IMG/VR virus record: IMGVR_UViG_3300008261_000059
Span: 1-64,000 of that record
Reading direction: 5' to 3' (one strand)
From: an uncultured virus (IMG/VR IMGVR_UViG_3300008261_000059)
Taxonomy: Duplodnaviria > Heunggongvirae > Uroviricota > Caudoviricetes
Length of the DNA stretch: 64,000 nt
Shown here: positions 41,521 through 64,000 of the stretch, in pieces
Numbering within the stretch: the first letter of the stretch is position 1
How the letters are laid out: every line of letters starts with the position of its first letter
Notes under the pieces: generated by a model
What the model was told of the DNA's origin: nothing
Seen by the model: only the letters and a program-made list of their open reading frames with translations
Databases searched by the model: none
Position numbers and translations under genes: made by a program

Positions 41521-41600
41521 TTGAGGGAATTAAGAATAATGAGAAGTTCGTTTCCTGTTTGTGCTTTGGACAGGAGATTGATCTTTTCTTTGCGTTTCAT
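41517..41600 (-). CDS. 27-aa peptide with TGxELL motif
   Basis: MKRKEKINLLSKAQTGNELLIILNSLK, read manually; coupled to the next gene. Confidence 0.5.
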   Translation of the reverse strand: MKRKEKINLLSKAQTGNELLIILNSLK

Positions 41601-41601
41601 A

Positions 41602-41745
41602 TCAGTTACTCATTACCTTATTGAACAGTGAATCATAATCATCTTGATTGATGTGGTCAGGAATACCTACATCATAGAAGAATTGAATCATAGATTGAAG
41701 AACTTCTAATTCTTCAGGAGTGAATCGGAAAATCATTTCTTCCAT
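41602..41745 (-). CDS. Small acidic early protein
   Basis: MEEMIFRFTPEELEVLQSMIQFFYDVG..., read manually. Confidence 0.5.
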   Translation of the reverse strand: MEEMIFRFTPEELEVLQSMIQFFYDVGIPDHINQDDYDSLFNKVMSN

Positions 41746-42123
41746 TTGATTTCTTGTGCTTTGAGGTACTTGTATTCTCGAATAAAAACTTTAATTGCCC
41801 AGATTGCAGTTGCGGTTTTACCAATCAACAGAATCCAACCTAATGTCATCATTGCTCTTTTTGCTCTACAAGTTTAGCAGGTGAACCACAAGACCGATAG
41901 AAATCAACCATTGCTTGTGCTTCTCTTACATTCGGGAATGATTGAAACCTCCACTCACAATCGTTGTAAGGCACTTGATAAGTAATCTTCACTTGATTAT
42001 ACATTTCAATCATTCCTCAATGAAACAAATTTGACTTTGTTCTGCTGCTAACTCTTGCTCCTCATTCACAGTTGCAAATGCAGGAGAAGTTAAAAGAAAG
42101 AAAAGAAGAATATATTTCATCAA

Positions 42124-42285
42124 TCAACCATTGATGAGTTGTTGGACTTGATTGAAATCCTTACATTGTGCTGCTTTAATTGCATTTGTGATGCTATAAG
42201 TCACAAAACCACAACGGTGTTCTGCATTACACACAGCATAACCAATTTGTTTGGTCTGAATGTCAAAAACAGTTTTAATCAGCAT
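42124..42285 (-). CDS. Small early protein
   Basis: MLIKTVFDIQTKQIGYAVCNAEHRCGF..., read manually. Confidence 0.5.
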   Translation of the reverse strand: MLIKTVFDIQTKQIGYAVCNAEHRCGFVTYSITNAIKAAQCKDFNQVQQLING

Positions 42286-42324
42286 TGCTTGTTTGTGTTT
42301 ATGTGGGACAGATAGAATTAAGAA

Positions 42325-42489
42325 TCAGTCTGCGTATTGTGCATAAACAATCGCAATCTCGGCATTTTCTTCATCATTGAAAGAAATGCCACACATATCA
42401 AGCATCCAATCATAAACCATTTCCCAATCTGCTTCCATCTCAGAAATGAAAGAAGGCAGAGATTGAATTGCTTCGGAAAAAGTCATCAT
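42325..42489 (-). CDS. Small acidic early protein
   Basis: MMTFSEAIQSLPSFISEMEADWEMVYDW..., read manually. Confidence 0.5.
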   Translation of the reverse strand: MMTFSEAIQSLPSFISEMEADWEMVYDWMLDMCGISFNDEENAEIAIVYAQYAD

Positions 42490-42527
42490 TGATTGTTTTG
42501 TTTGTTTGTTGAAAAGAGAATTAAGAT

Positions 42528-42701
42528 TCAGATGCGGGCAAGAGCATCTTTCTTTTGCTTCGGATTGGAAACTTGCTTACACCAAGAAGACTTGCGATAA
42601 GAACCAACTTGAGAAGGAAGTTTTTGCTTACCCTGAACTTCATTCACAAGAGTAATGAAGTTCATGAAGAATTGCTTTTCCATCCGTTGAGCAGCAGTCA
42701 T
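42528..42701 (-). CDS. Small basic early protein
   Basis: MTAAQRMEKQFFMNFITLVNEVQGKQKLPSQ..., first ORF after the promoter at 42764-42821. Confidence 0.55.
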   Translation of the reverse strand: MTAAQRMEKQFFMNFITLVNEVQGKQKLPSQVGSYRKSSWCKQVSNPKQKKDALARI

Positions 42702-42763
42702 CTGAATTCAAATAAAGAATTGGACTTAGGTGGGACAGGCACCCCTGCTCCCTCCACCCTCTT

Positions 42764-42821
42764 AATATAGCACCTTTTGGGGTCTGTGCTCTTTTAGTGT
42801 GCCAGTGCTACAGGTGGCACA
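42764..42821 (-). promoter_or_regulatory. Early promoter with palindromic element
   Basis: tgtgcca-N10-tggcaca at 42798-42821; -10 TGcTATATT 28 bp away. Confidence 0.8.
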
Positions 42822-42866
42822 GGGTATCATTGGACTCAGATGAGTTGATGATACCTTAGAGGTCAG

Positions 42867-43094
42867 TCATTTCGCATTACTGAAACCTTGAGCAATTCCA
42901 GTTACAAATGCAGCACCAATACTCATCCAAAAATCAGGACTTTGCACACACTCAGAAACTGCTTGTGCCCAATCTTGAGGAGTAGAGTTCATCAGCATTT
43001 TCTTCTGTTCAGGAGTCAGATTAGAAACAGTTTCACTCCAGGCAGTTTCAATCTCTTGCTCAAACACTTGACTGAAAGAAGACAAATCACTCAT
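42867..43094 (-). CDS. Hypothetical protein
   Basis: Track ORF downstream of a consensus promoter. Confidence 0.6.
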   Translation of the reverse strand: MSDLSSFSQVFEQEIETAWSETVSNLTPEQKKMLMNSTPQDWAQAVSECVQSPDFWMSIGAAFVTGIAQGFSNAK

Positions 43095-43109
43095 CTCTGA
43101 ACTCCGTTC

Positions 43110-43138
43110 ATCATAGCACCAATCCCGATGCTTGTCAA
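43110..43138 (-). promoter_or_regulatory. Consensus sigma70 promoter (no palindrome)
   Basis: TTGACA-N17-TATGAT with an extended TG. Confidence 0.75.
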
Positions 43139-43197
43139 GGGGTCTACGGTTCTTCTACCTATCAGCATCCCTGATGGGTATGCTGGGGAAAACAAGA

Positions 43198-43353
43198 CTA
43201 CATCTCATTCACCATAAAATCAATTTGATTCTGATAGTAATTGATGTCTTCAGTAATAGATTCAATCACCTGAACTTGATGTTTAGGTACATTGTCCCTT
43301 TCTTTCTGAAGTTCTTGAATCCGTTGCATCAACAGTTTAACTTGGTCTTCCAT
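43198..43353 (-). CDS. Small coiled-coil protein
   Basis: MEDQVKLLMQRIQELQKERDN..., read manually. Confidence 0.5.
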   Translation of the reverse strand: MEDQVKLLMQRIQELQKERDNVPKHQVQVIESITEDINYYQNQIDFMVNEM

Positions 43354-43358
43354 TGTTA

Positions 43359-43646
43359 TTACAGTTGCACAAGGACTTTCATCATTGCAGAAACTTCTGC
43401 TTTAGTATTCCATCCAATCACATCTTCAGTCATATTTCCATTCGGTCGGAAGATTGCAACCTCATAAGTATTGTCAGTCACATTACCATACAATCCACTT
43501 CCAGGAAGTCCAGCAACAACAGAAATACTCCAATCATTTCTGAACTTATACCTTCCCTGAATTGCACCAGGAATAGAATGTGCTTCAAACTCAAGTTGCT
43601 CAAACATTGTATCAAACAAATTGTTGGGACAGTGCATACTTAACAA
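43359..43646 (-). CDS. Conserved phage hypothetical protein (start probably near 43607)
   Basis: KFRNDWSISVV...GLYG...TYEVAIF...DVIGW pattern seen in many phage proteins. Confidence 0.6.
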   Translation of the reverse strand: MLSMHCPNNLFDTMFEQLEFEAHSIPGAIQGRYKFRNDWSISVVAGLPGSGLYGNVTDNTYEVAIFRPNGNMTEDVIGWNTKAEVSAMMKVLVQL

Positions 43647-43944
43647 TCTCTGTGCGATTGTCTTTGTACTCTAGAAGAAGGTCAATGATGGGTTTAGTGT
43701 CCTCTGGATTTTGAAGTTCAGGGTCACACTCATCATTGGCAAGTGCAGTAAAAATACTTGCAATCTCAAAGTCTGATTCAAACAGAAGTTCCCGATGCTC
43801 GTCAATTTGTAGATAATCATCTACAGCATTACCAGTCAATTTCAATGGAACATCAGGACCAATCAAACCCAAAGTGGCAAGTCGTTCCAATGCACCAACA
43901 ACCCACATAATTTTGCACTCACCAATCGACAGTTCTGTGTTCAT
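43612..43944 (-). CDS. Hypothetical acidic protein
   Basis: Track ORF on the coding strand. Confidence 0.6.
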   Translation of the reverse strand: MNTELSIGECKIMWVVGALERLATLGLIGPDVPLKLTGNAVDDYLQIDEHRELLFESDFEIASIFTALANDECDPELQNPEDTKPIIDLLLEYKDNRTEIVKYALSQQFV

Positions 43945-43985
43945 TGTATTAAGAATAAAGGGAAGAAAGGGAAAGGGTGTTTAAC

Positions 43986-44660
43986 TCACACCCCACAGAG
44001 TTGCTTAGTCACAGAACCAGATGCTTGACGGTTCAGAGAAACACCAGCACCAACGTTAGAACCAGCATAAGCACCAGCACCGTTAGCACCATTCATCTTC
44101 TTGGCACGTCCGAATCGCATCGTGGAGAGTTTGCTCTTCACTGCATCAGCATCATCATGCACTCGGTTCTCTGCTACTTTCATTTCACGCAGACGTTCTG
44201 CAACCTTATCAGCAAATGCTTTACGGAAGTTCAACTTGAAACTGCGAGAAACAGTTTTACCAGTAATGTCTGCCATAACCTTCTCTGCTTTATGTGCAAC
44301 ATCTGCCTCTTTCTCCATCACCTGAACCAGGTAATCATAATAGAGACGCACTTGGATTTGTTGTGCTTCACTACCAATCACCTGCAGAGATTTGGTATCT
44401 CCATTCTTCAGGTATGCCATTGCATCATAGAACTTTGCAATCGCATTAGCAATCGTAGTCAGAGCAACATTGGTTTTCTTGAAAGAGATAAAAGACTCAT
44501 CAAGAACTTGAGTTTCAGTTGCCTCACTGATGGTTACACCATACTGCTTGCACAGTTTGTCAATCATCTTAGCAGCAGCATCTGCCTCACCCTCAAAAGA
44601 AGTTCCATTCTGAAGTTTCAGGATGGATTGAATCTTTGCGATGACTTGAGTGCGGTCCAT
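43986..44660 (-). CDS. DUF2786-domain protein
   Basis: MDRTQVIAKIQSILKL..TSFEGEADAAAKMIDKLCKQYGV; later RSFKLNFRKAFADKVAERL; start placed downstream of the promoter. Confidence 0.7.
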   Translation of the reverse strand: MDRTQVIAKIQSILKLQNGTSFEGEADAAAKMIDKLCKQYGVTISEATETQVLDESFISFKKTNVALTTIANAIAKFYDAMAYLKNGDTKSLQVIGSEAQQIQVRLYYDYLVQVMEKEADVAHKAEKVMADITGKTVSRSFKLNFRKAFADKVAERLREMKVAENRVHDDADAVKSKLSTMRFGRAKKMNGANGAGAYAGSNVGAGVSLNRQASGSVTKQLCGV

Positions 44661-44711
44661 TGTAAAGAATTGAGATTGGGACTCGGGTGGGACTGCTCCC
44701 TCCACCCTCTT

Positions 44712-44769
44712 AATCTACCAGAAAAAAGTGCCAGTGCCCGTTTAGTGTGCCACCAGTACAAGTGGCACA
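44712..44769 (-). promoter_or_regulatory. Early promoter with palindromic element
   Basis: tgtgccac-cagtacaa-gtggcaca at 44746-44769; -10 TGgTAGATT 28 bp away. Confidence 0.8.
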
Positions 44770-44935
44770 GGGTATCACTGGACTCACCGAGTTGTGCTGA
44801 TAATGTCAGCAACAGTGTAAAGTGTGTTTGCAGTCAGATTCCTCACACCAGGAGAGAAAATAAATGCAACCGCAAAGATAAGAATTATAGTTCGCATCTT
44901 ATCTGGTGCTTTGAAAGTTAATGTCTTAGTTCGCA

Positions 44936-45139
44936 TCAGGCACAGATGGAATAGAGTTTGTTGAACTCATATTCTCCATCTTCACCCTCAACTGCCTGAT
45001 AAACAAATACAGTTTCACCAGACAGTTCAACACTCCAATCAAGAGCATCTTCTTTGGCATTGTCTACATCTTGATACCACTCGGCATCAATAAGGTCAAA
45101 AGAGACAGGGCAAGAAAGAAACATTGGAGTCAAAAACAA
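44936..45139 (-). CDS. Small acidic protein
   Basis: Track ORF (AKEDALDWSVELSGETVFVY); start uncertain. Confidence 0.55.
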   Translation of the reverse strand: MFLTPMFLSCPVSFDLIDAEWYQDVDNAKEDALDWSVELSGETVFVYQAVEGEDGEYEFNKLYSICA

Positions 45140-45218
45140 ATGAATTAAGTTGATGGTGCAAGTGTGATATGCCTCATCAGGACATAACAGGGACTTGCAC
45201 TCTATCGTTTCTATTTAA

Positions 45219-45416
45219 TCAGACTGCAGCAAGGTAAGCAGCAATCTCATCATCATTCTCGGGACAATCAGCAATGCCCAGTTGATCACAAACTTGCTCA
45301 CGAGTGAGTTCAGTTTGGTCAGGAACAATCACATCAAGAATGTTCAGAAGTTGAGTTCCAGTAGCACCCTTGCGGAGCATACCGAGCATCACATCTTTGG
45401 AGAAAGAAACAGTCAT
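45219..45416 (-). CDS. Early protein with TGxQLL motif
   Basis: MTVSFSKDVMLGMLRKGATGTQLLNILDVI...; start placed downstream of the promoter. Confidence 0.6.
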   Translation of the reverse strand: MTVSFSKDVMLGMLRKGATGTQLLNILDVIVPDQTELTREQVCDQLGIADCPENDDEIAAYLAAV

Positions 45417-45479
45417 TTGAGTTGGAGTTAGTTTGACGTTTGTGGGGTGGGTTGGTTGCCCTTCCCTCACCACCCCTAT

Positions 45480-45537
45480 ACAATACCACATTTTGGGCAC
45501 TGTGCTCATTTACTGTGCCACCAGTACAAGTGGCACA
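45480..45537 (-). promoter_or_regulatory. Early promoter with palindromic element
   Basis: Perfect palindrome arms at 45514-45537; -10 TGgTATTGT 28 bp away. Confidence 0.8.
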
Positions 45538-45986
45538 TCGCATAATTGGACTCGGTGGGACTGGATTTTGCTAGGAAGCACCAACCCCCCTGAGTCCTAT
45601 GCGGGACACATAATGAGACCGAGAAGAGTTTTTGTTTCTTCTCTGATTCCACCTGCAACCCAGGCACCCCCCACCGCAGGATGCAGTCCCATTGCAGTCT
45701 CGTGTGAAACTGTTGATTTGGGATTTTTCTGCAATCTGGGGTCAAGGTGCCCTAGGTCATGGACCACAATCTCATCGACGGTCCATCTGAAACTGTTGAG
45801 AATCAGGCAGATTCCAGCAGTTCAGGATAATAGTCTTTAACTTCTGTAATCAATTCTTCCTCAGTATAATCAGTAAGATTTTCTACGAGAGTATCATAAA
45901 CAAAACGTTCCATTGTTTTGTAGTCCATGCTATCCAGCATTTGCTGAGCATAAGCATCAATCAGGTCTTCTTTATTCATGATAAGT

Positions 45987-46199
45987 TCAGTGAGATTCAG
46001 AAATTACAAGGTAATCAAGTGAATTGACACACCAACCAGTTTGGTCGGAAATCAAATCAGAAAGTTCATCTTCATTATCAACCTCGAAGACTTCACCAAT
46101 CACAGATTTAGCAACTGCGACTTGCTCATCATAAGGAAGTTCCCCAGATGAATCTTCAAAGTCAAACTCAATGTCAGTTAGTTTCAGAAGCATTGTCAA
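45987..46199 (-). CDS. Small acidic protein
   Basis: TDIEFDFED...EDELSDLISDQTGWCVNSLDY. Confidence 0.6.
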   Translation of the reverse strand: MTMLLKLTDIEFDFEDSSGELPYDEQVAVAKSVIGEVFEVDNEDELSDLISDQTGWCVNSLDYLVISESH

Positions 46200-46444
46200 A
46201 CCTCAGCAAAAGGATTAGCAAGTTGCGGAATCGTATTGAAATCTACAACTTCATAAGGAATGGTGTGATTAAGATACTCTTCAATCTCAAGATTCATCTC
46301 AATTCGATTGAGAAACTTCTTGGATTGACTTTGACCCATAAAAGTCAAAGTTTTTAGAAACCACTCTTCGGATACATTGCCCATCGGAGTTTTGATGGGG
46401 TAGAAATCCACCACCATGTTGCCATCTTTAGATTGGAGTTTCAT
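46196..46444 (-). CDS. Cyanophage hypothetical protein
   Basis: MKLQSKDGNMVVDFYPIKT. Confidence 0.6.
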   Translation of the reverse strand: MKLQSKDGNMVVDFYPIKTPMGNVSEEWFLKTLTFMGQSQSKKFLNRIEMNLEIEEYLNHTIPYEVVDFNTIPQLANPFAEV

Positions 46445-46488
46445 TGAGTGATTAGAATGAAGTGAATTGGAGTTAAGAAACTAACGTG

Positions 46489-46896
46489 TCAGAATTGTGT
46501 ATCGAACACAAACCCATCTTCATAAACGCAATCAAGATTATCGAAACTTGATTCCCAATCAATTTCCAGAAAACCAGGCATTTCCGTAGTATAACAGTCA
46601 TTCACAAAGTTCTCTACATATTCACCTTTAGAACTCCAAGCACCACGGTAAGAATCTTGGAAACCAGGAAGTTGGTCGAGACCAAAATACTCAACAAAAG
46701 CATCTACTGCTTCATAATTGTATTCTTCTCCAAGTTGACAATAATCTTCGTAAAACTTTACGAGATTATCTTCACCGTGCTCTCCAATGAACTCATAAAT
46801 GTCCTCATCGGAAAAGTTATTATCAACCAGTTCTTTGATAAACTCAACAGTCGATTCTTTGAGATTCACTTCGATTGCAGGCATTGGGTTTCTCAA
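46489..46896 (-). CDS. ArdA-like antirestriction (DNA-mimic) protein
   Basis: Very acidic; EAVDAF..FQDSYRGAWSS..EYVE..MPGFLEIDWE..DNL..DGFVF resembles the ArdA C-terminal half. Confidence 0.55.
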   Translation of the reverse strand: MRNPMPAIEVNLKESTVEFIKELVDNNFSDEDIYEFIGEHGEDNLVKFYEDYCQLGEEYNYEAVDAFVEYFGLDQLPGFQDSYRGAWSSKGEYVENFVNDCYTTEMPGFLEIDWESSFDNLDCVYEDGFVFDTQF

Positions 46897-46912
46897 CCTC
46901 GATTACTTTGTA

Positions 46913-46972
46913 ATCATAGCACCCCCAGCAGGGGTTTGGACGGTGTAATGTGCCACCTCTACAAGTGGCACA
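46913..46972 (-). promoter_or_regulatory. Early promoter with palindromic element
   Basis: Palindrome at 46949-46972; -10 TGcTATGAT 30 bp away. Confidence 0.8.
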
Positions 46973-47150
46973 GTCTCACTCAAGACTCACTCATCATACC
47001 AGTATTCATAATCTTTCACAATGTCATCAGGATGATGATACTTTTCAGTCATACGGTCAATGAAATCTTGGACCTCACCATCATCTAAATCAGCATTGAA
47101 ATAAATCGTGAGGTTGACAGATTTATATTGAGTCACAGTCGTTTGTTCCA

Positions 47151-47561
47151 TCAAAGTTGTTCTTGAATCAGTTTAGAAAGTTCATTGAAAGTATAACCTG
47201 AATCGTTCAGGTCCGCAAGTCCTTCGTGATAGAACCAACTATCTTCATCATCTTCTTCAACATCAATTTTTACCACAGGACAATTTTCAGTGAATCCTGC
47301 CCAATCCATTACAGATTCGGGCACAAACTCACTTTGGTCTTCAAAATACCAATAGTCTTTAGGTTGAAGATTAGTTTCTTCAATGCCCCTAAACTCCCAT
47401 TCAGTATTGTGTTCTTGTGCATAAAGGTCACACAGAACACCAAGACAACAATAACCACTCACAGTGCGGAGTTTTTCACTGCCCTGCTCGTATTTACCAG
47501 AACGCAGAGCATCAATCCACTTTTGCTTAACTTCAGGATTCATTGCCGTTGACATCATCAA
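47151..47561 (-). CDS. Conserved phage protein (CCLGVLC motif)
   Basis: MNPEVKQKWIDALRSGKYEQG..L...YCCLGVLCDL...LNDSGYTFNELSKLI. Confidence 0.7.
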   Translation of the reverse strand: MMMSTAMNPEVKQKWIDALRSGKYEQGSEKLRTVSGYCCLGVLCDLYAQEHNTEWEFRGIEETNLQPKDYWYFEDQSEFVPESVMDWAGFTENCPVVKIDVEEDDEDSWFYHEGLADLNDSGYTFNELSKLIQEQL

Positions 47562-47727
47562 ACCAAGTGTCGAGTGAGTTAAAAATTTCAGTTACAATAG
47601 TATCAGTAATAGAATCAATGTGTGGTTCAGGATTGTGCTTAAACGCACGGTTGTATCCGAACCTAACACCTTCCTCTATTGCCATTTCCAATACATTACG
47701 GAATCTAGGTTTCATAACACCTCCCAA
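47533..47727 (-). CDS. Hypothetical protein
   Basis: MKPRFRNVLEMAIEEGVRFGYNRAFKH. Confidence 0.6.
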   Translation of the reverse strand: MGGVMKPRFRNVLEMAIEEGVRFGYNRAFKHNPEPHIDSITDTIVTEIFNSLDTWFDDVNGNES

Positions 47728-47915
47728 TCACATTCCCAAGAGTCATTGACATTTACCCAAAAGAAGTATTTTTGATTCTCTGATGCGAGAAACAACATAC
47801 CATCACCCTTGTCTTGCTCTACAATACAAGTTGGGTTGTTATCCATAAAATTGCAAAGTCTATTCTTTGCTTTCTTGGATTTAGGTCTAACAATTACTTT
47901 GCGTGGATGTGACAT
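47712..47915 (-). CDS. Hypothetical protein
   Basis: VRPKSKKAKNRLCNFMD...FLASENQKYFFWV. Confidence 0.6.
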   Translation of the reverse strand: MSHPRKVIVRPKSKKAKNRLCNFMDNNPTCIVEQDKGDGMLFLASENQKYFFWVNVNDSWECDWEVL

Positions 47916-48779: not shown

Positions 48780-48785
48780 CCAGCA

Positions 48786-50861: not shown

Positions 50862-52100
50862 TTAGGCAGCAACAACCTCACCTTTCACAAATACAGTGTC
50901 AATGACACTCTGAAGTTGCCGAGCAATCCTATCTCCATAGTTGTTATTCACAGGAATAGTGATAGTACCAAAGGGTTTCTTGTAGAAAGCAAACTCACCT
51001 GCTTTCATCTTACCCTCTGCGATTGCTTGACGGTCATCACGGTGCATACGGATAACCCTTCCGATTGTTTGGCACATTTCAATCATAGGAAGATTACGCA
51101 GCATAATGCAATGAGTCAAACCTTGAACGTTGATACCTTCAGACAGAATGCTGTAGTGAAATACAATGAACTTCTTGTCTGGGTCAGCACCAAAATCACT
51201 CATCTTCTCAAAGAATACTTCACGAGACACTTTGGTTTTGTCGATGTAAGCACCATGCTTGGAAGTGATATGCATAATCGTGTAACCCATATCATTGAGT
51301 TGTTGAAGCAAATCACTTTCAGTGAACATTGCCCAAATTACTTTGGTGCTCGGTGCAGCAACAAGAACTTTAGGTGCATCACAATCAGAAATACCAGACA
51401 GGATACCTACAATGTTCTCTGCATCTACAAAAGGTGCATTTTCCTTTGTGCGAATCGTTTGTGCTTCATAAGGCACAACCCGAGGAGGAATAATACTGCC
51501 TGCTTCAATCAATTCTTTAGCAGGAATACTGATGATATTATTACCATAAACATCAGTATTGTTCATAGACTCCATACTGTTATTGAACTTCGGAGTTGCA
51601 GTGAAGAAATAAGCATTATCTGCAACTGCTGAAGTGTGAGCAATGCCCACAAAGTTAGATGGTTTCACACAGTGGTGTGCTTCATCAAAATACACCACAT
51701 CAATGTTAATTTCTGCTTCATTCACCCGACCAATGGAATTGTAAGTGGTGAAAATGAATTGATGCTTGCCACTTCCGATTGCTGTGTCATTGTATTCTGC
51801 AATGACTGCTGGACGTGTAGAGGATTGATGATGAGTTTCACCACTGTGAACGTGCATATAAGCAATGTTTTGCTCTTTGAGATATTGTTCAAACTCCGAA
51901 CAGAGTTGATTTGCAAGCAGGATTCGAGGTGCAACAACAACAAACGTCATCGGTTCTTTTGCGTTAAGAACACGTTGACGGGCATCTTCCATCATCACAA
52001 CAGTCTTCCCACCACCAGTAGGAATATACACTGAACCCCTGATTGCTTTCTGCACAGCATCAAGAGCACGTTGTTGATAAGGAAGAAGAGTCAGCATCAA
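50862..52100 (-). CDS. SF2 (DEAD/DEAH-box, ResIII-like) helicase
   Basis: LLPYQQRA, IPTGGGKT, VVAPRILLANQ, FTTYNS, FDEAHH, FTATP, ILSEGINV, QTIGRVIR. Confidence 0.9.
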   Translation of the reverse strand: MMLTLLPYQQRALDAVQKAIRGSVYIPTGGGKTVVMMEDARQRVLNAKEPMTFVVVAPRILLANQLCSEFEQYLKEQNIAYMHVHSGETHHQSSTRPAVIAEYNDTAIGSGKHQFIFTTYNSIGRVNEAEINIDVVYFDEAHHCVKPSNFVGIAHTSAVADNAYFFTATPKFNNSMESMNNTDVYGNNIISIPAKELIEAGSIIPPRVVPYEAQTIRTKENAPFVDAENIVGILSGISDCDAPKVLVAAPSTKVIWAMFTESDLLQQLNDMGYTIMHITSKHGAYIDKTKVSREVFFEKMSDFGADPDKKFIVFHYSILSEGINVQGLTHCIMLRNLPMIEMCQTIGRVIRMHRDDRQAIAEGKMKAGEFAFYKKPFGTITIPVNNNYGDRIARQLQSVIDTVFVKGEVVAA

Positions 52101-57074: not shown

Positions 57075-57113
57075 AATAAAAGTTAGTTGGTTAAGAAATT
57101 AACGAATCAAAAA

Positions 57114-57338: not shown

Positions 57339-57570
57339 TTAATAAAAAGTCAAGTGAACAAAAAGTGAGTAACTTTAGGGCAAACTCATTCCCCAAAGTC
57401 AAGCACCTACAGGATGCTCAACCTCGATTTCATCTTCGTCACCGAGACCAAGTTGAAGATTTACATAATCTTCATAATCAACATGGAGAAACTTTTTAGC
57501 AAAGTCCTCGTAATCATCGTGAAGAATACAAGTGTCAATCATCTTGAAACCTCCTTGACTTGATGAATAC

Positions 57571-57629
57571 ATCATAGCAGATGCAGGGTCGTTTGTAAAG
57601 TGTTATGTGCCAGAAGGATTAGTGGCACA
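57571..57629 (-). promoter_or_regulatory. Early promoter with palindromic element
   Basis: tgtgcca-N10-tggcaca at 57606-57629; TTTACA-N17-TATGAT. Confidence 0.8.
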
Positions 57630-57809
57630 AGTGGTATCAAACATCATACCATTTCATTTCATTGAAGTGTTCTTGATAGAAGAACTCATCAATTTTGTTA
57701 TCAACAATACTCAAGAGTTGATTGTAATGTTTCATCCCTTGAGTGCAAACAAGTTCAAGAACATCAAAGTTCTTTTGACAATAACCGTAGGTGTCAAGTT
57801 TAAGCATCA

Positions 57810-58040
57810 TCAATAAGACTCGATTTCGGCAAGTTTCTTTTGTTGACGCAGTTCTTTTACAATCATTTGGAGTTCAGAAATGTCTTCATTCAGAATAGTA
57901 AGGTCATCATACATCATTTCTGCTTGATAAGCACTCCTGCACTTTTTGTATTGCTTGGAAAGTTTATCGAACTTTTTCTTTGCTTCCTTGAGGTCTTTTT
58001 CATACTCGGGAAGTGTTTTTTCGAATTGTTGATAATTCAT
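57810..58040 (-). CDS. Coiled-coil hypothetical protein
   Basis: Track ORF. Confidence 0.6.
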   Translation of the reverse strand: MNYQQFEKTLPEYEKDLKEAKKKFDKLSKQYKKCRSAYQAEMMYDDLTILNEDISELQMIVKELRQQKKLAEIESY

Positions 58041-58185
58041 TTGAGATAAGGACTAGACCAGTAAGAACGAAAAACGGAATAAACGATAACAACAGTGCTG
58101 ATAACACCAACCAAACCGATAAAGGTAATGGCATCACTTGTAACTGCGTAAGTTTCGGGCATAACCTCGACTTGTTTACCTTGTA

Positions 58186-58244
58186 ATCATAGCACCTTTG
58201 AGGTGCGGAATCAAGTGAAAATGGACAGTCCAAAAACCGTCCAT
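58186..58244 (-). promoter_or_regulatory. Early promoter with variant palindrome
   Basis: atggaca-N10-cgtccat at 58221-58244; TTGATT-N17-TATGAT. Confidence 0.7.
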
Positions 58245-58264
58245 CGTTATACATATGTATTCAA

Positions 58265-58555
58265 TCAACCAACCACTTTTTGGTAGGTAATCCGAATATC
58301 TTGTGCGAAATCATCTCGTTTCTGTTGCGTAGTAAGGTTTGCAACTACGAATCGAATAGTTGCATAAACACCCACAACTTGCATCAGGGAATTGAAAACA
58401 GGGATGCTATCAACAATCTCTACAAGTCCATGAAGAAGAACTTGAGAGACAATAACTACAGCAAAGATGCCAGCAGTCAGTCCAACTTTCTTTAGCACAT
58501 CATCAGTCACATTTTCAGTGTAGAAGTCTTTAACAGTGGAAAAATCAAATTGCAT
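58265..58555 (-). CDS. CAAD/CurT (thylakoid curvature)-like membrane protein
   Basis: Two hydrophobic helices with VDSIPVFNSLMQVVGVYATIRFV..L.....RDDF....QKVVG, matching the CAAD pattern. Confidence 0.65.
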   Translation of the reverse strand: MQFDFSTVKDFYTENVTDDVLKKVGLTAGIFAVVIVSQVLLHGLVEIVDSIPVFNSLMQVVGVYATIRFVVANLTTQQKRDDFAQDIRITYQKVVG

Positions 58556-58739
58556 TGTTTTGGAAAATAAATTACTTGTCAAAAATTTCTAGGAACTTAT
58601 CAATCTCTTCAATCTTTGCAGTATAGTCTGCAACTAGGTCTGCGTGGGGATAATTATAGTATTCTGGTCGTTTCATGCAATCGAGCAAATGTTGCTTAAC
58701 TGCCTTTCTGATTTCACATTCAATTTGTATTCCAGACAT

Positions 58740-59045
58740 TTATTCTTCAGTAGGTACTGGTGGAGGAGGAGGTACTGGGGCAATAGGTTTTTGAACAACT
58801 ACTGGTTTTTGTTCAATCTGAGTAGGTGCTACCTGATTGTTGGGAACTACAATTTCCGAAGTTTCAGCAGGAGCAGGGATTGATGTTTGTTCAATTTTCT
58901 GTTCAAGTTGCTCAATCTTTTGGTCCAGAACACTTGGAGGAACTTCCGAATTTGATTGTGCTAATTTCCAACCAGCAGTCGCAGCACCAAAAATACTAGC
59001 AAGTGCTGCAACTACAGAAATAGTAGATTGAAACTTACTCACCAT
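58740..59045 (-). CDS. Membrane-anchored proline-rich protein
   Basis: N-terminal hydrophobic helix, coiled coil, PVPPPPPVP tail. Confidence 0.6.
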   Translation of the reverse strand: MVSKFQSTISVVAALASIFGAATAGWKLAQSNSEVPPSVLDQKIEQLEQKIEQTSIPAPAETSEIVVPNNQVAPTQIEQKPVVVQKPIAPVPPPPPVPTEE

Positions 59046-59302
59046 TCACCTCGTTGAATCAGAATCTTTTTGATTTCGTTAAAAATAAACTTCTTAAGTT
59101 TTGCATCATCAGTTGCTACATAAGCACTATGTAAACGATGCAGGTACTCCTCTTGAGTGCTGAGTTTGACTACCTTTACATTAGTCACACCAAGGTCACG
59201 CATCGGAGAACCTGCTTTTACTTTAGCACGTCCGAAGTTTCCAGATACAACACCTTGAGTGCGGAGTTTGGGTTTGATTTTGGAGAGATTTGAGTCCGTC
59301 AT
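59039..59302 (-). CDS. Conserved cyanophage hypothetical protein
   Basis: SNLSKIKPKLRTQGVVSGNFGRAKVKAGS. Confidence 0.65.
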   Translation of the reverse strand: MTDSNLSKIKPKLRTQGVVSGNFGRAKVKAGSPMRDLGVTNVKVVKLSTQEEYLHRLHSAYVATDDAKLKKFIFNEIKKILIQRGEW

Positions 59303-59324
59303 TACCCTTTTTGAGGATGCTCTT

Positions 59325-59383
59325 ATTATAGGGCAAAACCGACCCCGTGGGAGGGGTGCTGTGCCAGTTCCATAAGTGTCAGT
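59325..59383 (-). promoter_or_regulatory. Early promoter with palindromic element
   Basis: tgtgcca-N10-tgtcagt at 59360-59383; -10 TATAAT 29 bp away. Confidence 0.7.
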
Positions 59384-59990
59384 CGGTGGTCAAATGACGG
59401 TACTGTAATTTATCCATATAATGATAAATTGTATTATCATTATAAAACTCATAGAACCTTTGTGGGTTCCTTTCTCTCATCTTTGTCAACATATTCACCC
59501 ATTGATAATCACAATCAATTTCATATCCAATGTGTCTCTCATTCATTTTTATTTCTCTCGTCTAGATAATCAAATAATGGTGAATACAGAACAAAAAAGA
59601 ACCAAGCAAAAGAAGCAGAGATGATTAGAAGGTAAATCATCACCAAGGACCAACGTTTTTATAATACTCTGGATTTTCTGCTTTCATCATCTTCAGCAGG
59701 ACACGATTTAGAAAAGGATAATGTGGTTCCCAAACTGAGAGTGAACCTGCATCTGCACAAGACCGAATTGCCTTATATGCGGAATCATATTCTTCTTGAG
59801 TCAGTTCAATGCTAATCATCGTTTCAACAAAGCAAGTTGACGTTCAAACTCAAACTTCATTGGAAGAAGATGAGATACAAAAAAATGCTCGTATTCATTT
59901 CCTTCAACAATCTTTGATAGATTGTTAATCTGAATAAGAGCAAGATTGAACTTAATTTGTTTATCCATTAGTGAGTTGTTTCATACCCCT

Positions 59991-60049
59991 ATTATAGGGC
60001 ATCCAAGTCCCCACCGTGCCTATCAGTGGACAGTTCAAATGCTGGTTCA
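59991..60049 (-). promoter_or_regulatory. Early promoter with degenerate palindrome
   Basis: gtggaca-N10-tggttca at 60026-60049; -10 TATAAT 29 bp away. Confidence 0.65.
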
Positions 60050-60198
60050 ACATACCCAATCTTTACATCTGCAAAGAAATTGTTTAGGATTTCATCGCAG
60101 AGTTGGTATTTCCTACTACTCAATGAAACAGAGTTCATCTGATATTGACGCACTGCATCATAGATTACTTTTTTGTGTTCTTTAGAGAGTTCATTCAT
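59992..60198 (-). CDS. Hypothetical protein
   Basis: MNELSKEHKKVIYDAVRQYQ; its 3' end runs through the promoter. Confidence 0.5.
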   Translation of the reverse strand: MNELSKEHKKVIYDAVRQYQMNSVSLSSRKYQLCDEILNNFFADVKIGYVEPAFELSTDRHGGDLDAL

Positions 60199-60487
60199 CG
60201 CACTTGCTCTTTTCGTTGTGTATAAGTCAAATCAAACAAAGTAGTCAGAATATCAACACAATCATTATATAATTGTATGTCTTGAATGTTATTATGTTGA
60301 TATTTGCGAACAGCAGCAACAACTATTTCCAATTGTTCTTTACTGAGATTGTTCATTTTTCAGTTTATCAAGATGGTCGGTAATTGCTTTAGTAAAATCT
60401 TCTTCAGTCCAATCATTTAAGATACTTTCAGTTGGGTCATTCTCATCCCAACTGATTGTAAATGTTCCATCATCTTCTTCTTTACAT

Positions 60488-60706
60488 TCAATCATTTTCT
60501 GTCTCCCAAGGTGCTTTACGATTCATAATCTCTCTAAATCTTTCTACTGCTTTTGGGTCTGGTGGTTTATTGATTGCTTCTACAAGAGCATCATATGCTT
60601 CTTTGCTTACATACATCTTTTGTGGTTTCATACCAAGATGCTTGAGACACTTTCGTTCGTATCTCCACTCTTTATACCTATACCACAATGACCATAGAAA
60701 ATTCAT
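60488..60706 (-). CDS. Protein with DUF1778/TacA-like C-terminal segment
   Basis: VSKEAYDALVEAINKPPDP..VERFREIMNRKAPWE. Confidence 0.5.
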   Translation of the reverse strand: MNFLWSLWYRYKEWRYERKCLKHLGMKPQKMYVSKEAYDALVEAINKPPDPKAVERFREIMNRKAPWETEND

Positions 60707-60951
60707 CTTTTAAGTACCTCAGAATAATATGGGTCTCTTCCTGATAGATTATATGGGTCAAAACCTGGTTGAGACATTATATATTCATCTGTCATTTGCA
60801 TAAATCCACTTGATAGTTCTTCAAAAAACATAAGTCTATCAATATTATCATCCAAATTCAAACGAGCGTCAATACAATTCTTCCAAGACCAATAGATATC
60901 ATCAATCCACTGTTTCATCTGAGTAATTAACATAGAGATTGTCACCACCAA
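60703..60951 (-). CDS. Hypothetical protein
   Basis: Track ORF; start probably at MKQWID. Confidence 0.5.
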   Translation of the reverse strand: MVVTISMLITQMKQWIDDIYWSWKNCIDARLNLDDNIDRLMFFEELSSGFMQMTDEYIMSQPGFDPYNLSGRDPYYSEVLKR

Positions 60952-61087
60952 TGTTTAGATGAAAAATTTGCCCGTTGTTGAGATAGATTCCCAACCATAC
61001 CGCACGACCTTCTTCCATTGTTTCATAATGGACCATCTTCACATCTTCCAGAACAATCTCATCTGGATTCTTTACAAAACGACTCAT
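60902..61087 (-). CDS. Hypothetical protein
   Basis: NPDEIVLEDVKMVHYETME..VWLGIY. Confidence 0.55.
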   Translation of the reverse strand: MSRFVKNPDEIVLEDVKMVHYETMEEGRAVWLGIYLNNGQIFHLNIGGDNLYVNYSDETVD

Positions 61088-61422
61088 CGCATTACCTCTG
61101 TTGCACTTGCATCACCGTAGTTCAGATAACCAAAACGTTCCATAACATAACCCTCAAAGTCAGTAGCATCAGATTCGGCAACATAATGCCCACCATTGTT
61201 ATCACTCTCAGTATAGTTTCCAAGATAGTCATTGAAAACCATAAAGATTGCTGCTGCCTTTGCCCTTTCAGCATCGGTAGTAATCACGAGAGGATAAGTA
61301 ATAATCTTTGTGATACACTCAAACAGTTCTTCACGAGTGTAAGAAAATGCTTTTGCTTCTGGATTAAGGTCGTAAGTCATCAGGATACAAGAACGAGGAT
61401 TAGAACAATAACAAAACCCCAA
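61084..61422 (-). CDS. Hypothetical protein
   Basis: Track ORF; start probably at MTYDLNP. Confidence 0.55.
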   Translation of the reverse strand: MGFCYCSNPRSCILMTYDLNPEAKAFSYTREELFECITKIITYPLVITTDAERAKAAAIFMVFNDYLGNYTESDNNGGHYVAESDATDFEGYVMERFGYLNYGDASATEVMR

Positions 61423-61504
61423 GGAATATTCAAACTAATGACTTCTCCCTTGTCGTTTCTGTCGGCATATGGAACAAAAAACTTGATAATATCAAGTGTG
61501 TTCA

Positions 61505-61744
61505 TCAACCAACTCCATATGCTTCAAGAATCCCACGAGCAAGAGCAATTGCCAAATCCTTCTGTGCGATACTCATATCTTCACGAGCACCACCAGAACA
61601 AGAAGTAATGAAAATACCAGCATTATCTACCGTGAGTTCTACTCGTTCAGTTTCATTCTCATCAGCAGGATTAGTCCAAGTAAAGACATCAATCTTACTG
61701 CGGAGCACATCAGTTCCAGGCAGTAAAGTGTAGAAGTTAGACAT
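61505..61744 (-). CDS. Hypothetical early protein
   Basis: First ORF after the promoter at 61768-61826. Confidence 0.6.
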   Translation of the reverse strand: MSNFYTLLPGTDVLRSKIDVFTWTNPADENETERVELTVDNAGIFITSCSGGAREDMSIAQKDLAIALARGILEAYGVG

Positions 61745-61767
61745 TAGAGTTCTGTGTGTATGAGTGT

Positions 61768-61826
61768 ATTATAAGGCATCAAGGTCGGTTCTGGTGTGTC
61801 CTTGTGACGGTTGTTCAGGTGTCACA
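61768..61826 (-). promoter_or_regulatory. Early promoter with palindromic element
   Basis: cttgtgac...gtcacaag inverted repeat (core 61803-61826); -10 TATAAT 29 bp away. Confidence 0.75.
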
Positions 61827-62179
61827 AGACTTCTCAACACCTTACGAAGAAACTGAATAGAACCATAAAACTCTTGACCATCTTGCCCACCAATCACAAT
61901 CCAATCAACCTCTTCTAATGCAAGTCGGATTTTCTCATTTGTGGTGAGTTCCTCAAATGATTTCTTTGCAAGTTCCTCTCTTTCTTTCCATTCAATAGCA
62001 GCAAGTTGTTGTAGAGCATCACCATTTTCATCCATCAGTTTTTCTACTGCTTCCCATGCTTTGTTTTCTGCTTCTCTTTGAGCAGCAATCTCAAGCATTT
62101 CTTCGTGTGTAGGATGGTCAGTCATTTTGTTCTGCCTCGTATGATTGTTGAAATTCAAGTTGTCGTTCAAGTGCTTCAA
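61769..62179 (-). CDS. Hypothetical protein
   Basis: Track ORF; start probably at MTDHPT. Confidence 0.55.
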   Translation of the reverse strand: MKHLNDNLNFNNHTRQNKMTDHPTHEEMLEIAAQREAENKAWEAVEKLMDENGDALQQLAAIEWKEREELAKKSFEELTTNEKIRLALEEVDWIVIGGQDGQEFYGSIQFLRKVLRSLVTPEQPSQGHTRTDLDAL

Positions 62180-62384
62180 TACGATTTGTAAGGTCAGTCA
62201 ATACAGAAATCAGAGAACGATAATCAATCGTTTCAGTATCATTTCCATACTCCATATCTGTGTAATTGGAATAAAGGAGTTGGTTTGCCATATCGTTGCT
62301 ATTCATTATAAAATACGAATCCAGTTGCTGTCTGTTCATCGTAGTAATAATACTCTTGAAAGACTCCATTTGTAAAGTCTTCAA
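62118..62384 (-). CDS. Hypothetical protein
   Basis: C-terminal coiled coil; true start probably near MNSNDM. Confidence 0.5.
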   Translation of the reverse strand: MKTLQMESFKSIITTMNRQQLDSYFIMNSNDMANQLLYSNYTDMEYGNDTETIDYRSLISVLTDLTNRIEALERQLEFQQSYEAEQND

Positions 62385-62598
62385 GTGTTTCTAATTCATC
62401 ACTACCTGTTGAGTGATAGCAGTCTTCTACAAAGTTTTCAAATGACCCAACAGGACCACAGAACCTATCGGGAAACTTTTCTATGCTTTTATCAGGGAAC
62501 AGTTCATAGTATGTGTCTAATACTTCCTGCCCGTATTCTTCTAGGATTTCTTCAAGAGTCATACATTCCACTCTCTTGCTTCCCAATCCATCAGACAC
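62299..62598 (-). CDS. Acidic protein, distant ArdA-like
   Basis: EYGQEVLDTYYELF...FPDRFCG...FENFVEDCY...GFVF parallels 46489..46896. Confidence 0.45.
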   Translation of the reverse strand: MSDGLGSKRVECMTLEEILEEYGQEVLDTYYELFPDKSIEKFPDRFCGPVGSFENFVEDCYHSTGSDELETLEDFTNGVFQEYYYYDEQTATGFVFYNE

Positions 62599-62753
62599 AT
62601 ATTAGTTTGTTGCTTGTCTGTGTAGTTATCATAAGCATATTGTCGGCACTCTTCTTCTGTGCCCTCAAATAGCATTTCATAAAGTTTATGGTCTCCATCA
62701 TAGGTAAACTTATAAAGTCCCCACTCATCATAGCAGTCAGGAAAGAAAGGCAT
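62559..62753 (-). CDS. Small acidic protein
   Basis: Track ORF; coupled to its neighbour. Confidence 0.55.
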   Translation of the reverse strand: MPFFPDCYDEWGLYKFTYDGDHKLYEMLFEGTEEECRQYAYDNYTDKQQTNMCLMDWEAREWNV

Positions 62754-62998
62754 TAGAGTTCCTCCACCTCCAATTCAACAGCAAGGTTCAGTATAGCATC
62801 CTTTACCCAGTTCTGTCCTTTGATGAAATAATGTTTTTCCATACTCAACTCTCGCTCAGGGTCTGGTTCAATATTGAGACCTTCTACTGCTTCACGAAGA
62901 GCAGCAGCAACGGCAGAATTATCATAATAATATGGACCTGGACCCAACTTACTATAATACTCATTCATTACTTGTTGTGCTCTGGTTTTTCTACTCAT
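62753..62998 (-). CDS. Hypothetical protein
   Basis: RAQQVMNEY...AVAAALREAV...ILNLAVELE. Confidence 0.6.
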   Translation of the reverse strand: MSRKTRAQQVMNEYYSKLGPGPYYYDNSAVAAALREAVEGLNIEPDPERELSMEKHYFIKGQNWVKDAILNLAVELEVEEL

Positions 62999-63846
62999 CG
63001 TAGTTTCTCCCTAATCATTCGGATACACTGATTCCATTTATAACTGTTAGTGTCGTGTTCTGTTGGCAACCACAAACTAATTTCATCTACCAAAGTCTCA
63101 ATAGAAGTTTCCATATCCCAATCACTATGAGTTGTGAATACATCTTCCCACCAATCATAAATCAAATCAGTAAGATTTTGTGGTTTATTTTTTTCTCTCC
63201 ATTCTTTGATAAGGTCAAGAGAGTTCTTGAAGTTCTTATCATTATCTTCCTCATCAATCAGTTTTTGAGTTTCTTTCCAGTTTTCTGTTTGTTGTGCTTT
63301 TATAAATGCCTCCCTCATTCCTTTTTCGGTTTCTTCAGGTGTTTGTGGTTTCAACCAATCTAATGGGTCTGTATCTGGATGTTCTTCACACCACTTCACA
63401 CTCTCCTTCACAACTCTTTCTACATCCTTATGAAGTCGTTCTCCCCGTTCTTGTGCGGTTTCTTGATACTCTCCTACCTTATAATCTTTCTGTGCGGACT
63501 TATATCCATTCGCAAAGTGCATCCAAGTTGAACTTTTACGAATAGGGTCAGTATCTGGATAATAGGTATAAAGTCTCTTGAATGCTTCTTCTACTGGTGA
63601 TTTTGTTTTTTCCAGTTCCTCCAAGAATGAGAGTTTGGATTGAAGCACTTTGATTTGTGCTTTTACTTCTTCAATTTCAGTCATAGGAGTTTCGTATTGT
63701 ACGGGTTCGTCAGTCATTTTAACTTCCTTTACAGCATTATCTACAAGTTGTTGTGCTATTCTAGCACATTCTTCTTGTTCTTTCTTTCCAAGAGGTCCAT
63801 AAACTTGTTCCATTAGTTGTTGAAAATCCTTTTCAATACCAAACAT
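62995..63846 (-). CDS. Hypothetical modular protein
   Basis: 283-aa track ORF on the coding strand. Confidence 0.6.
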   Translation of the reverse strand: MFGIEKDFQQLMEQVYGPLGKKEQEECARIAQQLVDNAVKEVKMTDEPVQYETPMTEIEEVKAQIKVLQSKLSFLEELEKTKSPVEEAFKRLYTYYPDTDPIRKSSTWMHFANGYKSAQKDYKVGEYQETAQERGERLHKDVERVVKESVKWCEEHPDTDPLDWLKPQTPEETEKGMREAFIKAQQTENWKETQKLIDEEDNDKNFKNSLDLIKEWREKNKPQNLTDLIYDWWEDVFTTHSDWDMETSIETLVDEISLWLPTEHDTNSYKWNQCIRMIREKLR

Positions 63847-64000
63847 TACAGGTTCTCCAATTCATCACATACATCAAGTATAGCACGAGCATCAAGCAGG
63901 AAATCCTCACCTTCAAGGCAGTTATAGTATTGGAGTTCAAATACTAACTCACGAAGAACATTAGCAACCGCATCATTATTGAGTTTTTGGATGATAAAAT
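63846..64000 (-). CDS. Hypothetical protein (partial, start outside window)
   Basis: ...VANVLRELVFELQYYNCLEGEDFLLDARAILDVCDELENL*; stop overlaps the next ATG. Confidence 0.55.
   Translation of the reverse strand, partial: FIIQKLNNDAVANVLRELVFELQYYNCLEGEDFLLDARAILDVCDELENL

Follow-up and report, generated by a model that had tools for sequence, protein, structure and literature searches.

A GATC desert confined to one block of a T4-like cyanomyovirus genome and region-specific avoidance of restriction-type palindromes

Introduction

Restriction-site avoidance in phages is well known and is usually treated and scored as a property of the whole genome. The importance of where the sites lie is also known. 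Restriction-modification acts on T5 and BF23 only if sites lie in the first-step-transfer (pre-early) region (PMC10644984), and whether members of the Autographiviridae are sensitive to a Type I system depends on their leading region (PMC12455610). The subject of the present analysis is a stretch of 64,000 nucleotides, hereafter called the window, that forms positions 1 to 64,000 of IMG/VR record IMGVR_UViG_3300008261_000059 from an uncultured virus, and within it a region that is almost devoid of the tetranucleotide GATC. The whole record, designated G000, is classed as linear, is 77,719 bp long and has a CheckV completeness estimate of 37%. It is a fragment of the genome of a T4-like cyanomyovirus of approximately 210-250 kb. 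For the analysis it was divided into block A (1-41583) and block B (41584-77719, 36.1 kb, of which 41584-64000 lies in the window).

Results

Depletion of GATC in block B

An exact search found 74 GATC sites in the window, 73 of them at or before 41580, one at 45284 and zero in 45288-64000. The first-pass annotation had reported the single site at 45284 in 41584-64000 and none in the last 18.7 kb, with which the search agrees, and all the positions that it named (230, 414, 1313, 1637, 1904, 2000, 2531, 2894, 41580 and 45284) carry the motif. The blocks and the sites that delimit them are as follows.

1..41583, minus strand: block A, the late structural module with baseplate and tail-fibre genes
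41580..41583: last GATC before the desert, at an abrupt boundary; it ends a dense run of sites at 40722, 41215, 41281 and 41580
41584..64000, minus strand: window part of block B, the GATC desert, which runs on to 77719
45284..45287: the only GATC in the window part of the desert; relative to the related record G006 it is private to G000, the sole such site in block B

The expected number of sites in 41584-64000 was 78, 96 and 102 with Markov models of order 0, 1 and 2, so that the earlier rough figure of 60-80 was a fair one. Block B as a whole, to the end of the record, contains 2 GATC in 36.1 kb (the second at 67644), whereas 124-151 were expected with Markov models of order 0-2. Synonymous-codon shuffles, which preserve every protein sequence and the codon usage and were run both pooled and per gene, gave an expectation of 94-101, and the minimum in 300 replicates was 74. 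The desert therefore survives both the Markov and the codon-aware comparison and is not a matter of codon usage, which the first-pass annotation had listed as a point to be checked. Block A is also depleted, with 73 GATC compared to 127-161 (Markov) and 138-141 (codon shuffle), or 0.45-0.53 of expectation. The counts are significantly below composition-aware and codon-aware expectation in both blocks, and the ratio is 0.01-0.02 in the 36-kb block B versus 0.45-0.53 in the linked block A.

The possibility was considered that the junction between the blocks is an assembly artefact. It is not, because the junction is also present in two independent contigs, G001 and G006, and in a contig of 8,728 nt from an RNA library that covers 39965-48692, across the junction, with no differences. 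A promoter and terminator scan of 37000-47000 gave 31 versus 27.8 and 6 versus 5.7 in shuffles, and no clear boundary element was found there.

Turnover of GATC since the split from the nearest relative

The nearest distinct relative of G000 is G006, which has the same boundary. The two records were aligned over 39.6 kb of block A, at 91.5% nucleotide identity, and over 16.2 kb of block B, at 88.6%. Because the divergence is similar, the two blocks have travelled together. In block B the two records share 0 GATC, and 1 and 3 sites are private to G000 and G006, respectively, while a neutral word of equal expected frequency would have approximately 28 private copies per genome, roughly half of them gains. 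In block A, 39 sites are shared and 24 and 26 are private, and the private fraction of 0.39 can be compared with a median of 0.31 for control words. Since private GATC in block B are far below the neutral level while block A turns over like control words, new GATC have been removed from block B in each lineage after the split, with no such removal from the linked block A, and the selection is region-specific and ongoing. A pure relic of different ancestry cannot yield suppression of GATC in block B only.

The depletion was also compared between genes of different pedigree. In block B, genes shared with three cultured phages without GATC avoidance have GATC 0/33 and unshared genes 2/99 (here and below, fractions of this kind are observed over expected counts). 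Outside block B, genes shared with non-avoiding phages have 57/138 and unshared genes 15/18. The gene-sharing pattern is alike in G002 and G003, two uncultured relatives whose complete genomes measure 247 and 251 kb and are syntenic with the window. Location, and not gene pedigree, predicts depletion.

Two other candidate explanations were rejected. Gene flow limited to core genes fails at the gene level, the ratios for shared and unshared genes being equal within each region. Functional conservation of GATC in block A was also considered. In locus L016 (87% nucleotide identity) 8 of 18 sites were kept, which is approximately the neutral value of 0.87^4, and 9 were gained.

Palindromes and restriction-type words

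The first-pass annotation had noted that GGCC, CCGG, GCGC and AGCT look scarce throughout, and the counts in blocks A and B bear this out in both halves: AGCT 11 and 7, CCGG 0 and 0, GCGC 3 and 3, GGCC 5 and 5. It had concluded that the regional contrast is specific to GATC. The contrast is indeed largest for GATC, but palindromes as a class are also lower in block B. For all 16 palindromic tetramers the observed/null ratio of block B obtained with codon shuffles is equal to or below that of block A. The following ratios illustrate the difference.

CATG: 1.1 in block A, 0.5 in block B
TTAA: 0.85 in block A, 0.56 in block B
AATT: 0.98 in block A, 0.73 in block B
TCGA: 0.65 in block A, 0.47 in block B
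GTAC: 0.53 in block A, 0.35 in block B

Among the 4-mers of G000, the median log2(B/A) was -0.54 for palindromes versus 0.00 for non-palindromes (Mann-Whitney p=1e-7), and the shift was retained when GATC was left out (p=4.5e-7). The corresponding palindrome medians in relatives were -0.49 in G002, -0.95 in G007, -0.88 in G014 and -0.48 in G006. When the structural DNA of another relative, G011, was split as a control, no palindrome shift appeared (p=0.2). Palindromic 6-mers behaved similarly, with a ratio of 0.68 in block B versus 0.84 in block A of G000, and of 0.47-0.68 in block B versus 0.83-0.92 elsewhere across the genomes tested. The words with the top contrasts, GATC, AGCC/GGCT, CCGG, AGCT and GTAC, are palindromic or of restriction type. 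Because the effect is biased towards palindromes, it points to restriction-type selection at the level of the DNA and not to RNA or codon effects.

The non-palindromic AGCC/GGCT is far more depleted in block B and, together with AGCT and GGCC, makes up the degenerate word RGCY. In the window, RGCY words number 28 versus about 110 expected in block A and 16 versus about 145 in block B. These words are avoided together, more so in the B-like block, in G000, G002, G003, G006, G007 and G014 and in the cultured phages S-SSM7, Syn9, S-SCSM2R and S-PM2. AGCC/GGCT is among the top-contrast words in every genome examined. The pattern suggests pressure from a degenerate RGCY specificity, which we take to be that of the CviJI recognition site and accordingly label CviJI-like. 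CCGG is wholly absent from the 77.7 kb, where codon shuffles expect 31 copies in block A and 20-29 in block B; it is also absent or nearly so in S-PM2, Syn9 and S-SSM7.

Recurrence in relatives

The baseplate wedge genes gp6 and gp25 were used as the anchor for orienting blocks A and B in relatives.

34917-36803, minus strand: gp6, baseplate wedge gene (Pfam)
36803-37204, minus strand: gp25, baseplate wedge gene (Pfam)

A B-like span was defined as the stretch covered by matches to the block B proteins of the window, no more than 50 kb upstream of gp25. The 16 records with gp25 and at least three matches to block B genes were scored with a one-sided binomial test; G008, which has no gp25, was dropped. 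The GATC ratio of the B-like span was below that of the rest of the record in 15 of the 16, a count in which the close kin G000 and G006 are not independent, and the difference was significant in 12. S-CAM7, S-SCSM2R and G012 had the same direction without reaching significance. The exception was G011, which is purged genome-wide and has a B-like span of just 1.6 kb.

Individual records extend this comparison. G001, a contig of the same phage from a different sample, reaches 39 kb further on the structural side; its GATC runs at approximately 0.3-0.7 of expectation per 5-kb window through the first 80 kb and then falls to zero. In G007 the 43.5 kb of B-like DNA contain 6 GATC, and the remaining DNA stands at 0.47 of expectation. 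The direction of the gradient in G002, the genome of which is complete, and in G003 is the same as in G000. Furthermore, palindromes as a class are again depleted in excess in the B-like DNA of G002, G006, G007 and G014 and in the initial 10.5 kb of G010.

The 10.5-kb stretch of G010, a relative of 156 kb, has hardly any palindromic tetramers of any kind, with GATC 0/38, AGCT 0/21, ACGT 1/14, CATG 3/35, TCGA 3/19 and CTAG 3/14, and it adjoins DNA of normal densities. G011 does not avoid AGCT (138/177) or CCGG (43/63). The differing avoidance profiles of related phages presumably reflect different hosts.

The cultured phages avoid GATC little, and a GATC desert was sought in S-CAM7, S-SSM7 and S-SCSM2R, none of which shows one. 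The B-like regions of the cultured phages are the most purged of the motifs that these phages do avoid, as the following cases show; S-CAM7 had no contrast in this comparison.

S-SSM7: AGCT 6/39 in the B-like region versus 261/359 elsewhere
Syn9: AGCT 7/47 in the B-like region versus 150/408 elsewhere
S-SCSM2R: AGCC 9/32 in the B-like region versus 284/325 elsewhere
S-PM2: palindromes as a class lower in the B-like region, p=3e-4

Phage identity and gene content

Assignment to the T4-like cyanomyoviruses (Kyanoviridae) follows from T4-type baseplate genes and from the closest relatives, which belong to that family. Pfam identified the T4-type baseplate domains gp6, gp25, gp8 and gp9/10 in block A, and the best tblastn matches of gp6 are to Synechococcus myoviruses, at 61-63% identity. 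The nearest cultured relatives have genomes of 216-244 kb. Block A also contains giant ORFs of 1437, 2516, 1574 and 2616 aa and speD, and its other Pfam matches are DUF4815, YHYH and AdoMet_dc. A 149-aa ORF at 381-830 on the minus strand, adjoining the giant tail-fibre-like genes, has an N-terminal Mtd_N (Major tropism determinant) domain (E=1e-12) and is a possible receptor-binding module. All 20 of the 20 sequencing runs that contain the stretch 37000-46999, from 13 studies, are labelled freshwater, lake water or aquatic. The closest cultured relatives infect marine Synechococcus.

Block B consists of approximately 100 small minus-strand ORFs, mostly of unknown function. The features recognised inside the window part of the desert are listed here.

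46489..46896, minus strand: ArdA-like candidate anti-restriction protein, 135 aa
48786..49604, minus strand: Dam-family N6-adenine DNA methyltransferase, 272 aa
49607..50296, minus strand: protein of predicted MutH/Sau3AI fold, 229 aa, immediately 5' of dam on the coding strand
50862..52100, minus strand: superfamily-2 helicase, 412 aa (Pfam ResIII, DEAD, Helicase_C)
55353-55829, minus strand: HNH endonuclease
55879-56649, minus strand: metallophosphoesterase
56664-56739, minus strand: tRNA-Arg(TCT)

The other families recognised in block B are a CAAD protein, a peptide deformylase and 2OG-Fe(II) oxygenases. The helicase served as the anchor for retrieving 49 related loci.

The Dam and MutH-like pair

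The 272-aa ORF is clearly a Dam-family methylase by its domain matches, scoring 185.1 bits against PF02086 MethyltransfD12 (cut-off 22) and 239.2 bits against TIGR00571 (cut-off 114.85), and its specificity for GATC is predicted. The neighbouring 229-aa ORF had no Pfam match and none among the sequences of solved structures, whether searched as a single sequence or as a profile. Its match to the NCBIfam MutH model (E=1.1e-7, 31.2 bits) does not reach the cut-off of 243. An AlphaFold2 model with a pLDDT of 81.6 was compared with solved structures by Foldseek, and MutH or Sau3AI accounted for every one of the top 10 chains (best E=1.3e-7, probability 1.0, TM 0.52). Across 20 homologues D63, D66 and K70 never vary and E68 almost never does; these residues may correspond to the catalytic D...E-x-K of MutH. 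The modelled protein thus has the MutH/Sau3AI fold and is a putative GATC nuclease.

The first-pass annotation had counted this pair in the module under selection. All 4 of the 4 helicase-centred loci that have both Dam and the MutH-like gene have a GATC ratio of at most 0.08, although they represent only about 3 independent lineages; the median in the 43 loci without a MutH-like gene is 0.35, and 7 of the 43 are at or below 0.09. When relatives with and without the module were compared, a link between the pair and the desert failed. Neither Dam nor a MutH-like gene was found in the 88-kb contig of G007, yet it has a desert, and the complete genome of G002 lacks a MutH-like gene and has the gradient. 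S-CAM7 carries both genes and has no desert. The pair is thus neither necessary nor sufficient for the desert, and for these reasons it is not regarded as causal. We read it either as a further response to the pressure directed at GATC or as a passenger that GATC-poor DNA can tolerate.

Several further observations concern the same genes. In the close relatives L097, L101 and G006 the dam and helicase products are 95% identical in protein sequence to those of the window, while the MutH-like protein between them is 54-55% identical; the nuclease alone appears to have been replaced, as an allele or as a cassette. G003 has a MutH-like homologue at 239723-240343 with one in-frame TAG, which may reflect a pseudogene or a sequencing error. 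The same three genes as in 48786-52100 of the window are found in S-RIM8 A.HR1 at 31993-34793, where their order with respect to transcription is reversed. The contig that carries dam (48844-49446) had, in one metatranscriptomic library, a word depth of approximately 1029 versus approximately 33 for the adjoining 8.7-kb contig. This is a hint of high dam RNA, contig depth being a poor measure of expression that may sum over relatives.

The ArdA-like protein

The 135-aa ORF matches phrog_36653, 'anti-restriction protein' (E=9.6e-21), and its homologues in P-TIM68, S-PM2 and S-TIM5 are annotated as anti-restriction. Pfam ArdA is matched by 14 of 22 aligned homologues (best E=1.3e-7); the window copy itself has no match to it at E<=0.01. 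In the structural comparison the only solved chain with Z>=2 was ArdA 2W82 (Z 5.0, rmsd 3.8 A, 112 aligned residues). Searches against the sequences of solved structures returned nothing or chance-level rows, and Foldseek gave no match at E<=0.001. With the Dam methyltransferase, the ArdA-like protein makes block B a region that encodes candidate anti-restriction functions.

Promoter-like motifs

Two simple consensus patterns were counted, a sigma70-like motif (TTGAC[AT]-N16-18-TAnnnT) and ATAAATA, which we take to represent early-type and late-type promoters, respectively. Block B has 10 sigma70-like motifs on the minus (coding) strand and 0 on the plus strand, and block A has 1 on the coding strand. 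ATAAATA occurs 11 times in block A and 2 times in block B, always on the coding (minus) strand. By these motifs block B looks like an early block and block A is of late type.

Discussion

The explanation that is favoured, tentatively and with a probability somewhat short of even, is a stronger anti-restriction selection on block B as an early block that encodes anti-restriction functions. The DNA of the phage would be under selection against short palindromic sites of restriction type (GATC, the RGCY words, CCGG, GTAC and others), most plausibly exerted by restriction enzymes, and the penalty per site would be several-fold higher in one contiguous block of approximately 36-45 kb upstream of the baseplate operon. 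That block would comprise small accessory genes, early-type promoters and candidate anti-restriction functions. During the first minutes of infection it would have to remain whole and able to be transcribed, so that the products for takeover and anti-restriction could be made. Cuts or nicks elsewhere could be tolerated more readily if by then the sites were methylated, the enzyme inhibited or the cohesive ends religated. That cuts in block B would be costlier is suggested by the early-type motifs, by the presence of dam and the ArdA-like gene inside the block and by the precedents in T5 and T7-like phages. The first-pass annotation had proposed selection on the module expressed first, including the mutH-like/dam pair itself. 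The region-specific and ongoing selection seen in the comparison with G006, and the resemblance of block B to an early block, agree with that proposal; the causal part given to the pair does not stand in view of G007, G002 and S-CAM7.

A number of observations weigh against the favoured explanation. That block B is expressed first is suggested by promoter-like motifs matched to simple consensus sequences, and similar sigma70-like clusters lie in unpurged DNA, for example at 88-100 kb of G002, where the GATC ratio of 0.66 equals the genome background, so that a desert does not follow from early-type promoters by themselves. On a log scale the multiplier between blocks B and A is approximately 5-fold for GATC and approximately 1.3-1.7-fold for AGCT and GTAC. 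Since it differs between motifs, a single cost per cut does not account for it, which leaves an additional factor specific to GATC. The helicase and other B-like genes of G008 and G010 have a normal GATC density beside GATC-free stretches of 10.5-13.6 kb that look like recombination patches. The boundaries of the deserts are abrupt and differ between relatives. G011 (75.7 kb) is purged throughout, structural genes included (GATC 20/241), and S-CAM7 has no regional contrast, its GATC being uniform at 737/1050. Moreover, we know of no mechanism by which a T4-like genome would survive a double-strand cut outside the early genes.

Different evolutionary histories of the two halves had been the other proposal of the first-pass annotation. 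Modular exchange is real among distant relatives and is the probable source of the shifted, abrupt boundaries and of the GATC-free patches that stand alone in G008 and G010. However, the co-divergence of blocks A and B between G000 and G006 and the effect of location rule out different histories as the explanation of the contrast. In the form of mosaic ancestry or gene flow, block B would belong to a pool of modules from phages or hosts with heavier or more diverse restriction, or to a lineage purged genome-wide, and the remainder would have been refreshed by recombination with unpurged relatives, so that the contrast would reflect history and recombination and not a differing cost of cuts. 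This is considered unlikely. It would account for G003 being closer to G000 in block A (61% versus 59%) while G002, G007 and G009 are much closer in block B (70-78% versus 41-58%), and for abrupt transitions and patchy deserts in otherwise unpurged genomes, G008 having 0 GATC in its first 13.6 kb and normal density thereafter and G010 having 0 in 10.5 kb. Relatives purged across structural DNA do exist (G011, as above, and G012 with 37/250), and the GATC ratio ranges from 0.00 to 0.59 among the 49 helicase-centred loci, even at 85-95% helicase identity. Nevertheless, G000 and G006 share both blocks at similar divergence and new GATC is suppressed in block B alone. Random mosaics should often reverse the direction of the contrast, which is the same in 15 of the 16 records. 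Outside block B, accessory genes show no greater depletion than core genes do, and the widely shared genes within it are purged completely. Outside block B the depletion in G001 is even over 80 kb, with no patches. A by-product of composition, codon or amino-acid usage, RNA-level constraint on early transcripts or assembly, with no selection on DNA sites, is very improbable. Block B does have a higher G+C (0.381 versus 0.333 in block A) and encodes different kinds of protein, but codon usage and composition were rejected as the cause, all the Markov and codon-shuffle nulls leaving 94-151 GATC expected in block B. The specificity for palindromes is predicted neither by RNA-level nor by compositional causes, and the junction recurs in independent contigs and runs. 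The nulls and the palindrome bias thus largely refute this account.

The selection could also be self-inflicted, if the putative MutH-like GATC nuclease of the phage, together with Dam, nicked or cut unmethylated GATC early, so that the DNA then transcribed would have to lack the site. The predicted MutH/Sau3AI fold next to a Dam-family gene, the low ratios of the four loci with both genes relative to the 43 without the MutH-like gene, and the retention in S-RIM8 of the same neighbours (methylase, MutH-like gene and helicase) fit such a mechanism. It is nonetheless given a quite low probability, since G007 has its desert with neither gene, G002 and the 7 low-ratio loci lack the MutH-like gene, S-CAM7 has both genes and no desert, and the contrast in other palindromes and in RGCY would be left unexplained. 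T4-like phages package their DNA by the headful and have circularly permuted ends, and ordered DNA entry is not expected of them; entry of block B ahead of the rest is therefore unlikely a priori. Ordered entry, which the first-pass annotation had raised as a point to check, with block B at the end that enters first and exposed to restriction before protection is made, as in T5 and T7-like phages, is accordingly rated improbable. The T4-type baseplate genes argue against it, as do the records of S-PM2, Syn9 and S-SCSM2R, which were deposited as circular. On its side are the contig of G003, which breaks beside the junction of blocks A and B, that of G002, which breaks inside block B, and the finding by IMG/VR of no end repeats in these records. 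There is also published precedent for an effect of site location (PMC12455610, PMC10644984).

Returning to selection on an early block, a more specific proposal can be made, which is possible although the balance is against it. T4-like cyanophages may carry a restriction-proofed block of approximately 40 kb, needed first and lying upstream of the baseplate operon, that would be a counterpart of the T5 first-step-transfer region without stepwise injection. Cuts outside the block would be largely survivable through early products (Dam, the ArdA-like protein and others) that would counteract restriction, or mend its damage, once the DNA has entered. The signal is approximately 30-fold concentrated in one block, so that whole-genome scores understate avoidance and location is itself informative. 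If the proposal is true, motif deserts could locate early or anti-defence regions in uncultured phages and could help to predict which restriction systems limit a phage, and the strength of avoidance would chart which parts of a phage genome are needed first and which later. The many small ORFs of unknown function that the block contains would form a reservoir for anti-defence genes, and the position of sites would matter for phage engineering. The idea can be tested directly at the bench, because the direction of the contrast is seen in the cultured phages S-PM2, S-SSM7, Syn9 and S-SCSM2R.

Comparison with known systems

The literature collection that was searched contained no report of region-specific avoidance of GATC or palindromes in cyanophages or T4-like phages, a negative that applies to that collection. 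Relative to it, what is new is the sharp and maintained two-regime pattern in a T4-like cyanophage, its recurrence in the clade and its extension to other motifs in cultured phages. The MutH or Sau3AI nucleases paired with Dam resemble the present pair in the predicted fold of the 229-aa protein and in its Dam-family neighbour. The present pair differs in that its MutH-like member falls far below the cut-off for sequence similarity and in that the desert neither requires the pair nor follows from its presence.

The first-step-transfer system of T5 resembles the present case in that sites are tolerated over most of the genome and not in one block, made up there of small early genes for takeover and anti-defence and here of small genes with early-type motifs and candidate anti-restriction functions. 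The cause in T5 is the two-step injection of a fixed terminal repeat, whereas the present phage has a T4-type baseplate and no terminal repeat was detected in the record. For the leading region of T7-like phages (Autographiviridae), the outcome likewise depends on the location of a motif and not on its count, and the critical region is highly variable and encodes anti-defence genes. That system involves another family, a Type I motif and slow directional entry, whereas the words avoided here are 4-bp or degenerate palindromes in a myovirus of approximately 250 kb. With restriction-site avoidance in general, the present case shares the under-representation of Type II-type words (GATC, AGCT/GGCC within RGCY, CCGG and GTAC) that codon usage does not explain. 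It differs in that two regimes stand side by side in G000 and that the difference between them is actively maintained.

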